Counted from the stretch's first letter, positions 16,087 to 21,475 are shown. The stretch is DNA of 64,000 nt from Elusimicrobia bacterium GWC2_64_44 (GCA_001799845.1 MGUG01000044.1:20-64019); one strand, 5' to 3'. Notes: generated by a model from the sequence alone, not told the origin. Translations and numbers: made by a program.

Positions 16087-17619
16087 TTACTTACCGCCCA
16101 GCATGCTCCCGATGAGCGCTATGGCGCCGGCGCCGGCCGCCATCCAGGCGGGGGTTATCGGGCCGAGGTCAACACCGGCCAGGGCCATGCCTGCCGCCGC
16201 GGTGGCGCAGCCGCCGCCGATGGTGTAGAGGGTACCGAGGGTCGACTGGCCGTGCTGCTGCATGATCATGATGCCCATGATGGTGGCCGCTATACCCAGC
16301 GCCAGCGCTACGCCTGCCAGGGCCATACCGATGCCCCTCAGGGAAGTACCGGCCGCTATCATGGCGGCGCCGGCCGCCGCGGTGTACGGCACTGCCGCGA
16401 GCGCGGTGCCGGACTCGATCATGGTGTCGCCCATGTTAATAAGCTTGGCGCCGATGCCGGCCAGCAGGGCCGCCATCAGGATCAGCATCATCGCTATGGT
16501 GGTCAGGCTGCCCCACGGGCTGACGTTGGCGGCGGGAGGCGGTTCGGGGATGACGGGCTCGGCGGGAGTGCCGGTGCCGCCGCCGCCGCCGCCGGTGCCG
16601 GCATTGTCGAGCGAGGGAGAGGTCATCAGACCCGCGCCGCCTTCGCTGAGGCCCGCGCCGCCAGCCGAGGCATCGCCTTCGCCGGTGCTGCCTTCCCAGG
16701 CCTTATCCTGCGTGGAGCGCGCCGAGTCTATGCTGGAGCCGCTGTAGGACTGCTGCATCGCCTTCATGCCCTTGGCCTGCCCGAAAGCCCCGGGCGCCAG
16801 GGCGCCCTTCTTGCCGGACTTCGCGCCGCCGAACACGGGCCGGGGCGAGCCTTTCATGGAGAGCATCTTGCCCTTGCGCGAGTCGAACTTGGGCATAGAG
16901 GAGAAGCCCGAGCCGATGCCCGAAGAGAAGCCGGGCTTGCCGCCGGAGGCGCCCGAGCCGAACTTGTTGCTGAAGCCCCCCATGTTGGAGAACTTGCTGG
17001 AGCCGCCGCCGAGCTGGCTGGTGAGCGAGCCGCCCATGCTGCCGCCCTGCAGCTTGCCCATCATCTCCTGGGCCATGCCGCCCGCCTGGTCGGCCCCGGG
17101 CTGCGCGTTGGGATCCGCCGCCTGGCCTTCGGCCGCCGCGTCCGCCGGCTTGCCGGCGTCGGGGGCCTTGGCCTTGGAGGTATCGCCTTCCATGGCAACA
17201 GCGCCCTTGTTGGTCTCCTTGAACATGTCGAGCGAAGACCCGCCGTTGGCGGCCTGGCTGCGCAGGATGGCCGGCACATAGTTGTCGGGCGTCCGGCCCG
17301 AGTTGAAGGCGGCCGCGCTGGTAGAGGGAGCCGGCGAGTTATTGGCTACGTACACGCCGCCCGCCACCGCCACCATGGCGATGGTGGCCACTATGCCGGC
17401 TTTGCCGGCCAGGAGGCCGGCCAAACCGCCGGAGGTGGACGCGCCGAACTTGCCGGCGCCGAGGGCGCCGCGGCCGAGGTTCATGGCCGAGGGGTTTATC
17501 CCCGCCTCGCCCATCGCCCCGCGGGAGGCGCCGCCGAACTTGCCGCGAAGCCAGCCGAGCGCGCCGCCCTTCTTTTCCTTCTTTTCCTTGAAGTTTATTT
17601 CCGGTAGATTGTCGTTCAT
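16087..17619 (-). CDS. Island protein D: N-terminal anchor, FG/GS-rich disordered loop, polytopic Gly/Ala-rich C-terminal membrane domain; paralog of C
   Basis: An ATG follows the RBS GGGAGG (TTGGGAGGCGTTATGAACGA). MNDNLPEINFKEKKEKK, TM IVATIAMVAVAGGVYV, FG-like tract GGFSNKFGSGASGGKPGFSSGIGSGFSS, and about 4-5 C-terminal hydrophobic helices. Confidence 0.75.
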   Translation of the reverse strand: MNDNLPEINFKEKKEKKGGALGWLRGKFGGASRGAMGEAGINPSAMNLGRGALGAGKFGASTSGGLAGLLAGKAGIVATIAMVAVAGGVYVANNSPAPSTSAAAFNSGRTPDNYVPAILRSQAANGGSSLDMFKETNKGAVAMEGDTSKAKAPDAGKPADAAAEGQAADPNAQPGADQAGGMAQEMMGKLQGGSMGGSLTSQLGGGSSKFSNMGGFSNKFGSGASGGKPGFSSGIGSGFSSMPKFDSRKGKMLSMKGSPRPVFGGAKSGKKGALAPGAFGQAKGMKAMQQSYSGSSIDSARSTQDKAWEGSTGEGDASAGGAGLSEGGAGLMTSPSLDNAGTGGGGGGTGTPAEPVIPEPPPAANVSPWGSLTTIAMMLILMAALLAGIGAKLINMGDTMIESGTALAAVPYTAAAGAAMIAAGTSLRGIGMALAGVALALGIAATIMGIMIMQQHGQSTLGTLYTIGGGCATAAAGMALAGVDLGPITPAWMAAGAGAIALIGSMLGGK

Positions 17620-17644
17620 AACGCCTCCCAAATATCCCTCGAAA

Positions 17645-20202: not shown

Positions 20203-20224
20203 GGGCACCGCTCACAGCCGGCCC

Positions 20225-21475
20225 TTACTTCGGCTTCTCCGTCACCAGCAGGTCCATGACATTTCCTTTCTCGTCATAGGTGACCTTATCATTATAAGAG
20301 ATAACAGTGCCGTCAGCGTTGGTCTGCTCTCCCTTGAATTCGCAGGTGAAAGTGGGCGGCGGCCCCTGGTTGACGGTAATGGCCCGGCTGGAGTCCTTGT
20401 ACTTGTCCCCGCCCTCGGTGGTGCAGCCCTGCCCGCAGGTCACATCGTTTATGGAATTCTGCACACCCTCCGGCAGCTGGTCCATGCCATTGCCGGTGCC
20501 GGTGCCGGTGCCAGCTCCGGTGCCGGTGCCGGCGCCCGTGCCGGTGCCGCCCTTGCCCATGGCGTCTTCCGCAGCTTTGATCGCGGCCGCGGCGGCTTCT
20601 TTCTTCATATCAGCTTCGGCCTTGTCTTTGGCGGACTGCTGAACCTTGGCGTCCTCGCCCAGGGCTTTCTTGGTGCCGTCCTCGTCCTTCACAGGGTTGC
20701 TTACCTCGGTAGTTTTCAGGCCGCCCTTCTTATCCATCTTCAGGTCGGCTATGTCGCCGCTCTTGATCTTGTCCAGGTTCACCAGGCCGCTCTTGTAGGA
20801 CATGTCGCCGCCGCCGCGGTTGCTGCCGCTGCCCAGGCCGAAGCTCTGGTTCCATTTGGCGCTGGCGGTCATGGCCGAGCCGGAGCGGAGGCCTTCGCCC
20901 AGCAGCGCCCGCGTATTCTTCAGGGTAGCCAGCGTGCCTTTGCCTTCGCCGCCGCCGGCGCCGGACTGGGATTTATTGGAAATCGAGGTGGTACCGGCCG
21001 CCGAGCCTTCGCCGAACCTGGTAGCCGAGCCGGCGGACTTGGAGCCGCCGCCGCCCCCACCGGCCAGGCCGGAGCCCCCGCCGCCCTGCATCTTGGGCAC
21101 CACGGCAGGAGAGGCGGACCGGGAAGAACTGCCGGAGGCCGAGGCCGCCGGGGCTTTGTCCATCCAGTCGGACATGTCGGGGTTGGTGGCCGCTATCCCC
21201 AGCTCGTCCAGCGGCAGGCCGCGGCTGGCGTTGCGGGCCAAGGCCGCTTCGGAAAGCTTGGGTTCATCTTCCGGAATGACGCCCATGGACTTGAAGAAAG
21301 AAGTCACGCCTTCCCTGGCGGCGCTGCCGTAAGTGAAGTTCTGGTTCTTGCCGGCCCTGGTCAGGTCGTTGGAACCCTGCACGATGAAGAAGAGGAAGAT
21401 GCCGCCGCCGGCGAAAAGGAAGGCCAGCACTGAAACTATCAGCGTCTTCCTCCGGTTGCTGGAATTGTCCTGCAT
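20225..21475 (-). CDS. Island protein A: N-terminal TM anchor, G/S/A-rich disordered region with (GT)n tract, small 4-Cys C-terminal domain; no family recognised
   Basis: Preferred start is MQDNSSNRRKTLIVSVLAFLFAGGGIFLFFIV. Has the VVPKMQGGGGSGLAGGG motif and a GTGTGAGTGTGAGTGTGTGNG tract. C-terminus ...VTCGQGCTTEGG...FTCEFKGEQTNADGTVISYNDKVTYDEKGNVM. Confidence 0.7.
   Translation of the reverse strand: MQDNSSNRRKTLIVSVLAFLFAGGGIFLFFIVQGSNDLTRAGKNQNFTYGSAAREGVTSFFKSMGVIPEDEPKLSEAALARNASRGLPLDELGIAATNPDMSDWMDKAPAASASGSSSRSASPAVVPKMQGGGGSGLAGGGGGGSKSAGSATRFGEGSAAGTTSISNKSQSGAGGGEGKGTLATLKNTRALLGEGLRSGSAMTASAKWNQSFGLGSGSNRGGGDMSYKSGLVNLDKIKSGDIADLKMDKKGGLKTTEVSNPVKDEDGTKKALGEDAKVQQSAKDKAEADMKKEAAAAAIKAAEDAMGKGGTGTGAGTGTGAGTGTGTGNGMDQLPEGVQNSINDVTCGQGCTTEGGDKYKDSSRAITVNQGPPPTFTCEFKGEQTNADGTVISYNDKVTYDEKGNVMDLLVTEKPK
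20489..20549 (-). repeat. Coding hexanucleotide (GGTGCC)n repeat in gene A encoding (GT)n
   Basis: TGCCGGTGCCGGTGCCGGTGCCAGCTCCGGTGCCGGTGCCGGCGCCCGTGCCGGTGCC. In frame. Confidence 0.7.

Follow-up and report, generated by a model that had tools for sequence, protein, structure and literature searches.

A conserved operon of diverged, motif-sharing proteins with putative membrane anchors in Elusimicrobiota

Introduction

What kind of system is encoded by a row of adjacent genes whose glycine-rich products share short motifs and match no known family? The question is posed by seven genes, A to G, which lie head to tail on the minus strand of a 64,000-nucleotide stretch of DNA from Elusimicrobia bacterium GWC2_64_44 (hereafter the window; coordinates in Table 1). 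The row is bordered by flavodiiron/ODP and Mur ligase genes at one end and by dnaX and recR at the other end. A preliminary description of this DNA had proposed that the proteins of an "island" here form one paralogous family, which arose by tandem duplication and divergence with retention of specific motifs, rather than random low complexity; its coordinates, 16087-21475, take in A to D only, and F, which it also cited, lies at 10665-14102.

Few members of the Elusimicrobiota have been cultured, and a large share of their conserved genes carries the annotation 'hypothetical'. We find that A-F constitute a vertically inherited operon that occurs only in this phylum. By sequence comparison, C and D are full-length paralogues, B is clearly homologous to both, and A and F are probable homologues by virtue of a module that they share; the place of E in the family is doubtful, and G is unrelated. 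Neither family nor operon has known relatives, and the sequences are best read as specifying an uncharacterised cell-envelope machine.

Similarity among the proteins exceeds shared composition

The likeness among A-G could be a by-product of Gly/Ser/Ala-rich composition and high G+C, with no family and no meaningful motif behind it, as would be suggested by the finding that BLASTP without composition correction (comp_based_stats 0) matches every pair among the proteins, by the many long antisense open reading frames (ORFs) in this 65% G+C DNA, and by the predicted disorder of most of each protein. The unbiased tests were composition-corrected BLASTP and profile-profile alignment (hhalign) with local column-shuffle controls, for which orthologues were taken from 64 species-level genomes, one alignment was built per gene and the profiles were compared pairwise. 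Under composition correction the only surviving BLASTP pairs were C-D (3e-11, 32% identity over 363 colinear residues) and, with SEG filtering, B-C (3e-4), and searches with hidden Markov models (HMMs) against sequences linked C with D at 2e-28 and 5e-31 and B to C at 4e-5. Profile alignment returned C-D at 100% (E 6.5e-43, 402 columns), B-C at 96% (E 2.4e-9, anchored on LKxNDPSL), A-F at 93% (E 4e-7, 187 columns) and A-B at 90% (E 1.7e-6, 270 columns), followed by A-C at 53% and D-E at 23-48%; E against A, B, C and F stayed below 5%, G against all others below 2%, and the remaining pairs gave nothing.

Reversed profiles reached at most 33% between different families, with a single value of 87% for a membrane helix aligned to its own reverse, which called for a stricter null in which template columns were shuffled within 15-column windows so that local composition was kept. 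Against these local shuffles, C-B scored 78.7 (shuffles 21.0±5.2; 11 standard deviations, SD), F-A 54.7 (17.5±3.0; 12 SD) and A-B 54.4 (21.1±4.1; 8 SD), while D-E, at 42.9 (24.6±4.2; 4.4 SD), was marginal, over a match of transmembrane-to-transmembrane architecture. A natural control pointed the same way: a protein of similar composition from the same genome, also anchored at its N-terminus (24330-25985), gave no match in its low-complexity part. Four pairs, C-D, B-C, A-B and A-F, thus stand after the all-versus-all comparison, and with motif columns conserved in about 50 species and ratios of nonsynonymous to synonymous substitution (dN/dS) of about 0.1, a purely compositional origin is refuted for C/D and B and very improbable overall.

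These results uphold the view that the proteins are not random low complexity, very strongly for C/D and strongly for B with C, and trim the proposal of a single family A-G to five of its seven members. D and B resemble C beyond composition, B sharing the central and membrane-proximal part of C, and A and F enter, by transitivity, through resemblance to at least one established member; the extension failed for E and G in hhalign and shuffles, E being marginal at best and G having no BLAST or hhalign relation to A-F. The module common to A, B and F spans roughly 100-200 residues and comprises P[KR][ML]Q, a Gly run, [KR]F(F)G, an Ala/Lys-rich stretch and (D)LKxxDP. Family HMMs detected no further member within the window.

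Shared motifs and start regions are retained under purifying selection

Every motif string that had been quoted was found at its reported place on the minus strand, including the SSTLDMFKE of C with its SSLDMFKE counterpart in D, the NDPSL/SPSL blocks of B, C and D, and the MND..EKKEKK N-termini and GGLAGL[FL]A[SG]KAGI segments shared by C and D. The translation start regions of C and D are near-identical, as described (TTGGGAGGAGTTATGAACGA in C, TTGGGAGGCGTTATGAACGA in D; joint form TTGGGAGG[A/C]GTTATGAACGA), and a similar one precedes F. Across species the start consensus reads GGGAGGAGTT followed by ATGAAC for C, GGAGGCGTT followed by ATGAACGACAAT for D and CGGAGGCGGTT followed by ATGAACTTCTA for F, kept in 32, 40 and 24 orthologous loci, respectively; all three combine a strong Shine-Dalgarno sequence with a shared Met-Asn N-terminus. 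In a shuffling control on the seven proteins, none of 2000 residue shuffles per motif reached the observed number of proteins, a count that is biased in that the motifs were defined after the data had been seen, so that we rely on the alignment statistics instead.

Conservation was scored across 42-63 orthologues per gene (about 50 species), and motif columns were conserved at 70-100% overall. P[KR][ML]Q is kept at 70-97% per position in F and C and recurs in D as K-L-Q-G and P-K-F-D; A keeps only P-[KR]-M of it. S[ST]LDMF is conserved at 73-100% in C and D, L-K-x-[NS]-D-P at 97-100% in B and C, S-P-S-L-D-N at 87-98% in D, R-D-P-x-S-L-I at 100% in F, and the P-W that precedes the re-entrant helix at 92-95% in C and D. 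Relative to the closest relative (locus L019), dN/dS is 0.14 for each of A, B and C, 0.09 for D, 0.048 for E and 0.27 for F, and the Gly-rich loop of C, at 0.084, lies below the membrane helices of the same protein. Retention of motifs during divergence is therefore borne out as purifying selection, and the Gly/Ser/Ala-rich segments, which resemble low complexity, are strongly constrained. A-F evolve faster than the flanking enzymes (median identity to the window 47-64% vs 79-84%). Apparent low complexity that AlphaFold renders as disorder can thus be as constrained as an enzyme (dN/dS 0.05-0.1), and such regions should not be masked in hunts for new cellular machinery.

A syntenic operon confined to the phylum

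In 64 species-level Elusimicrobiales genomes the genes run A-B-C-D-E-F and occupy one chromosomal position, between the Mur ligase/flavodiiron gene pair and dnaX; no locus long enough to show the order departs from it. The earlier term "island" is contradicted by this arrangement, which is that of a syntenic core operon with normal G+C and neither tRNA nor integrase at its flanks. A horizontally acquired island, whether mobile element, prophage remnant or defence locus, with surface proteins diversifying under conflict, would agree with the variable, tandem-repeat-bearing C-terminal parts of A and F and with genes that lack a known function, but is extremely improbable given a fixed position and order in 64 genomes, G+C of 0.59-0.71 that resembles the flanks, housekeeping neighbours (Mur ligase, flavodiiron protein, dnaX, recR), no tRNA in the 64-kb window, no match for A-G in a PADLOC scan, and no phage, plasmid or IMG/VR relatives of the cluster proteins in the collections searched. 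Prophage and defence island are ruled out on these grounds, and none of the marks of a genomic island or mobile element (variable presence or position, deviant composition, flanks, phage or plasmid relatives) was found.

When 1.84 billion representative proteins were scanned in HMMER with the profile of C, only 317 matched; among ten sampled, seven carried a source name, in every case Elusimicrobiota, Elusimicrobia or Elusimicrobiales, and three from Logan assemblies were nameless. The operon also occurs in metagenome-assembled relatives of Elusimicrobium minutum (L033, L044), a cultured species that would serve as a direct test system. We are thus dealing with an operon that is single-copy, syntenic across its order, recognisable phylum-wide and under purifying selection, yet without a relative among curated families or structures.

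Expansion of the family can be seen directly. Three Elusimicrobiales genomes (L026, L055, L060) carry two adjacent C-type genes whose copies are sisters within each genome in a neighbour-joining tree, which points to independent recent tandem duplications, and two to five C/D-type copies occur elsewhere. Tandem duplication and divergence, as first proposed, is accordingly plain to see, and the family grew by its repetition.

The minus-strand genes are real and probably co-transcribed. The product of C is a 100% match to a 488-residue hypothetical protein of Elusimicrobia bacterium GWC2_64_44, and because this database copy has 488 residues the true starts are the ATGs and not upstream TTGs; an exact look-up of the TTG-started ORF of C found no database match, since the real start is the ATG. 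Long antisense ORFs of 300-500 residues overlap A-F at several places, by-products of 65-70% G+C DNA that have no orthologue support, and it is the minus-strand genes that are the real ones. A consensus scan placed a terminator-like hairpin of the preceding gene and a sigma-70-like promoter match ahead of A, and a G+C-rich hairpin with a 14-bp stem and T-runs on both strands directly after the stop codon of F is likely the end of the A-F operon. As these elements bracket A-F, with the strong hairpin following F, G is probably a separate transcript; other genes stand between F and G in L003, and G is absent from distant loci.

The 340-bp E-F intergenic region is unusually long for the inside of an operon. 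It holds several terminator-like hairpins and a TATAAT-like box, gaps of 215-590 bp occupy the same place in most other loci (L001, L003, L007, L008 and more), and an internal terminator/promoter or a so far unrecognised RNA element may lie in it; the gap has no Rfam match, and an Rfam scan of 9400-22000 returned nothing above gathering score.

Predicted architecture of the encoded proteins

In each of A-F a short tail, which is often basic, precedes a single hydrophobic helix. At their C-terminal ends B, C, D and E have an additional one to four Gly-zipper helices, and the intervening segments are Gly/Ser/Ala/Lys-rich and conserved. From hydropathy, all six would be anchored in the inner membrane by the N-terminal helix with the tail in the cytoplasm, the long conserved segments would be periplasmic, and B, C, D and E would re-enter the membrane through their Gly-zipper helices. 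The conserved Cys pairs of E, F and A argue for an oxidising compartment and thus for periplasm-facing segments.

A, with orthologues in 51 loci, has a predicted N-terminal membrane anchor, a conserved P[KR]M..GGGGSKS..RFG module, a DLK block and a stretch rich in Lys, Glu and Ala; a Gly-Thr repeat and a C-terminal domain that is variable and contains Cys complete it. B has N- and C-terminal membrane helices around a predicted periplasmic loop with K-L, HNKFFGSG and DLKKNDPSL-PP motifs. In C, a predicted cytoplasmic MNDYNEKKEKK tail and a Gly-zipper first transmembrane helix lead into a conserved Gly/Ser/Ala-rich loop of about 270 residues (STLDMFKE, two copies of PKLQ, GFGSKGG, YGQAKFAG, LKGNDPSL, PW) and a C-terminal membrane bundle of three helices; its paralogue D has the same architecture and motif order. 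In E an N-terminal anchor and a linker rich in Gly come before a region of conservation (255-345), after which stand a Cys-rich helical hairpin with eight conserved Cys and C-terminal Gly-zipper helices. F opens with a MNFYNDDDKK tail, an anchor and a highly conserved N-terminal part of 350 residues (SSRDPASLILG, IPKMQ..FGGG), followed by about 800 variable residues that contain Cys pairs, Gly-Thr repeats and a coiled coil. Both A and F have, in their variable parts, Gly-Thr/Gly-Ala-Thr linkers that are encoded by DNA tandem repeats with periods of 6-36 and may be slippage-prone spacers of variable length. G, with a signal-peptide-like N-terminus, a C-terminal ...GAGLKF, an invariant F310 and no family or Protein Data Bank (PDB) match, is a putative outer-membrane beta-barrel.

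AlphaFold2, run with 30-49 homologues, gave a predicted local distance difference test (pLDDT) score of about 83-90 to residues 337-440 of C (the three C-terminal helices), the rest falling below 50, and of about 90 to residues 345-450 of E (the Cys hairpin), with everything else below 50. No model of E or C had a Foldseek match in the PDB at E <= 0.001, and only generic helical bundles were returned. No match above cut-off to Pfam-A or NCBIfam was obtained for any of A-G, scans of 44 E and 30 G orthologues gave sporadic sub-threshold matches only, and a PDB profile search with A, C, E and G returned nothing below E 0.07; the F profile met generic coiled-coil proteins only, at profile positions 430-980. 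A literature search on the Elusimicrobia envelope and on glycine-rich and hypothetical proteins found nothing relevant.

A candidate envelope complex and the points that weigh against it

We consider it rather likely that homology, operon and membrane complex belong together as one account. In this model the Gly-zipper helices of the paralogous subunits, together with the short motifs that they share, would bring them together in a single phylum-specific, inner-membrane-anchored periplasmic hetero-oligomer, to which F would supply a long coiled-coil rod and A and F variable distal domains. Assembly would use the shared motifs as its interfaces, and these would take on order only inside the complex; that the motifs serve as interaction or processing sites, as the preliminary description suggested, is kept as a hypothesis. 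In the cell, such a complex might conceivably act as an envelope scaffold or tether, or as the partner of a membrane AAA+ protease; the scaffold or tether role, taken alone, is rather unlikely. If an envelope complex is indeed formed, it would represent a lineage-specific answer to a general diderm problem, for instance how the envelope is spaced, tethered or kept under quality control.

Several observations count against this account. Neither A-C nor B-D is significant against local shuffles, so that A and F join the family only via B, by transitivity, and the link of F runs only through A. The reversed-profile control itself reached E 4e-6 (the helix against its own reverse), and E values near 1e-6 therefore need the shuffle controls. 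In F the RDPxSL block stands N-terminal to the PKMQ block, unlike in B, C and D, and is thus not colinear. In distant lineages most motifs are degraded, leaving [GP][KR][LF][SDE] and an EKEKK tail; in C and E every motif-bearing segment has a pLDDT below 50; the topology is drawn from hydropathy and cysteines; and co-assembly is read from sequence, with no known homologue in support.

Some of these points are what one would expect if the motifs of A, F and partly B were convergent short linear motifs, recognised by the same partner or enzyme, with C and D the only true paralogues. The missing A-C and B-D signals, profile-level links of A and F at E of about 1e-6, the altered order in F and the location of short motifs in predicted disorder, where convergence is common, all suit such an explanation. 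We nevertheless judge it unlikely: the A-B and A-F alignments extend over 270 and 187 columns, beyond the motif alone, at scores 8-12 SD above composition-keeping shuffles; C, D and F resemble one another in their N-termini (MN[DF]YN..KK) and start regions; and every gene belongs to a single tandem array, where duplication can be shown to be active. Homology of A with B and F is accordingly retained at a moderate, profile level, without confirmation of a direct A-C relation.

Comparison with known membrane assemblies

The closest analogues in kind are MceA-F, PilN/PilO and HflK/HflC-FtsH, in none of which membership is tenable, as none of their defining domains is present; we keep them as a working analogy. 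Mce operons encode the MceA-F heterohexamers of Mycobacterium and belong to the MlaD/PqiB/LetB superfamily. Like A-F, they consist of about six tandem paralogues, in each of which an N-terminal anchor in the inner membrane is followed by a conserved part close to the membrane and then by a variable C-terminal part, often of low complexity; the subunits are thought to form one periplasmic hetero-oligomer. However, A-F lack the MCE/MlaD domain (PF02470; Pfam scan of A-G, E up to 1), no YrbE permease or Mkl ATPase genes lie near the cluster, and four subunits here would re-enter the membrane at their C-termini.

PilN/PilO and GspL/GspM are alignment subunits of type IV pili and type II secretion systems. 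They too are adjacent, diverged bitopic paralogues with short conserved cytoplasmic N-tails, which heterodimerise, and TadE/TadG-like neighbours in distant lineages add to the likeness to PilN/PilO; differences are the lack of a family match, of a predicted ferredoxin-like periplasmic domain, and of any pilus ATPase, platform or secretin gene in the cluster. HflK and HflC are SPFH-family paralogues that form a periplasmic cage around FtsH. They are likewise N-anchored inner-membrane paralogues with large periplasmic parts, and in distant Elusimicrobiota the cluster is linked to a gene for an FtsH-type AAA+ metalloprotease; in contrast to them, A-F have no SPFH/Band-7 domain, their putative periplasmic parts are Gly-rich and predicted disordered, and the FtsH-like gene is unlinked in Elusimicrobiales.

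Other candidates were rejected. TolA/TonB proteins, like A-F, are anchored at the N-terminus and continue into an extended periplasmic region of low-complexity or helical character, to which the long coiled coil of F may be compared, but there is no TolA/TonB C-terminal domain and no TolQR/ExbBD gene nearby; the match of A to TIGR02794 (tolA_full; 19.9 bits vs a cut-off of 59.45) is partial, covering the Lys/Glu/Ala-rich stretch at residues 277-322, and TolA membership fails. The membrane helices of B-E are rich in GxxxG/A zippers, as in Gly-zipper_Omp (PF13488) and DUF456 (PF04306), models that match 3 and 2 of 44 E orthologues, respectively, at E 0.004 or worse, and two database entries are named DUF456; this likeness is confined to membrane helices and uninformative on the conserved periplasmic parts. 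A PEP-CTERM, GlyGly-CTERM or LPXTG sorting signal, considered for the Pro-rich motif and transmembrane helix at the end of B, was also dismissed: B ends ...ALGAVFGPLGAAV with no basic tail, the Pro-rich motif is internal in C and D, where more helices follow, and no NCBIfam sorting-signal model matches.

Distant loci and a possible link to an FtsH-like protease

Five loci from Elusimicrobiota outside Elusimicrobiales encode B, two to five C/D-type proteins, a membrane protein of 71-86 residues, E, F and a giant gene, and lack A and G. The small protein, with two predicted helices, lies between the last C/D-type gene and E in the distant lineages, and the 136-bp D-E gap of the window has no room for it. 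In the same loci a weakly TadG-like gene, a TadE-like gene and a gene for a short FtsH-like AAA+/M41 protease precede B. The FtsH-like gene of L069 carries what characterises its family, namely AAA (1e-36) and Peptidase_M41 (9e-36) domains with HEAGH as its HEXXH sequence, and two N-terminal hydrophobic segments. The TadE-like gene (PF07811) scores 19.4 and 18.9 bits in L069 and L071 against a cut-off of 22.9, covers model positions 1-43 of 43 and contains a prepilin-type RG/QATTEV motif.

This linkage is the best lead to function, in genes that are unlinked in the present organism, and it also suggests another explanation, in which the proteins would serve a dedicated membrane AAA+ protease as substrates or adaptors, or be Tad-pilus-like parts, and not form an autonomous scaffold. 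The ancestral operon would then have run TadG-like, TadE-like, FtsH-like, B, C/D, E, F, and the paralogues might form a periplasmic cage or platform around the FtsH-like enzyme, by analogy with HflK/HflC around FtsH. The trio lies directly upstream of B in all five loci, with tight spacing in four, and its genes are 62-79% identical among loci, above the conservation of C; yet L070 has four other genes between it and B, of which three run in the opposite direction, it is absent within 10 kb of the cluster in the 64 Elusimicrobiales loci and anywhere in the 64-kb window, the TadE and Tad matches fall under the Pfam cut-offs, and no secretin, TadA-type ATPase or platform protein is encoded nearby. 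We give this explanation a rather small chance, and a Tad pilus proper is rejected for want of ATPase, platform and secretin nearby and of any linkage in Elusimicrobiales.

A bolder extension of the envelope-complex model, to which we likewise attach only a low probability, is that A-F together with the FtsH-like and TadE/TadG-like genes are parts of an unseen phylum-specific envelope machine. Its working substance would be the conserved periplasmic segments rich in Gly, Phe and Lys, each with its two ends fixed in the inner membrane. Only when the parts co-assemble might these segments become ordered or condense, into something like a mesh or gate in the periplasm or the base of a filament, and the number of C/D-type subunits (2-5) would tune the size of the machine.

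Coordinates and neighbouring features

Table 1. Positions of genes, motifs and other features in the window and, where a locus number (L) is given, in related genomes.
Feature	Position	Strand	Remarks
Gene A	20225-21475	-	416 residues counted from ATG
Gene B	19137-20075	-	312 residues
Gene C	17645-19111	-	488 residues
Gene D	16087-17619	-	510 residues
Gene E	14442-15950	-	502 residues
Gene F	10665-14102	-	1145 residues
Gene G	9651-10523	-	neighbouring gene; putative outer-membrane beta-barrel
Motif in A	21053-21103	-	VVPKMQGGGGSGLAGGG
Motif in C	18494-18538	-	SSMPKLQGGAGLAGG
Second GPKLQ in C	18554-18598	-
Motif in F	13536-13586	-	TPIPKMQSGMRGLFGGG
Motif in D	17026-17061	-	MGKLQGGSMGGS
Motif in D	16870-16902	-	SSMPKFDSRKG
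SSTLDMFKE in C	18755-18781	-
SSLDMFKE in D	17215-17238	-
NDPSL/SPSL block in B	19248-19313	-
NDPSL/SPSL block in C	18098-18178	-
NDPSL/SPSL block in D	16603-16623	-
Translation start region of C	19079-19131	-	GGGAGGAGTT followed by ATGAACGA
Start-region twin of D	17619-17631	-
Similar start ahead of F	at 14102	-	CGGAGGCGGTT followed by ATGAAC
Terminator-like hairpin of gene upstream of A	21645-21616	-	consensus scan only
Sigma-70-like promoter match ahead of A	21599-21571	-	consensus scan only
G+C-rich hairpin after F stop	10614-10645	.	likely end of A-F operon
E-F intergenic region	14103-14441	-	340 bp
Tandem repeats	20491-20549; 11050-11096; 11446-11559; 12729-12831		linkers in variable parts of A and F
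Antisense ORFs	16252-17607; 17282-18778; 13188-14126; others	+	by-products
N-anchored control protein	24330-25985	-	just upstream of Mur ligase
ComEC-type gene	5245-7188	-	Competence domain and DUF4131
Adjacent C-type gene pairs	L026 9860-12755; L055 3148-6028; L060 8522-11365
Radical-SAM gene between D and E	L001 13131-14498		also in L002
Two-helix protein, 71-86 residues	L069 13166-13408; L070 17640-17894; L071 14662-14877 and 16443-16691
Two-helix protein, further loci	L072 15654-15908; L073 10707-10967
TadG/TadE/FtsH-like trio	L069 5520-8845; L071 5530-8848; L072 4886-8283; L073 226-3648; L070 1-3431
FtsH-like gene	L069 7187-8842
Control protein orthologue, example	L019 2580-4229

The control protein has an N-terminal anchor, low complexity of the GGGFGGFGGSSGG type and a C-terminal domain that is conserved and contains Cys, and is without a Pfam match. 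Its orthologues hold the same place in 12 other loci (15 matches including redundant copies of one contig). As an eighth family member it was rejected, its profile likeness to A-F being limited to the N-terminal helix (43% with A). One lineage carries an inserted B12-binding radical-SAM gene that separates D from E, and D-E gaps of similar size are seen in L011, L015 and L022. Near recR and dnaX, the window also encodes a ComEC-type competence protein.

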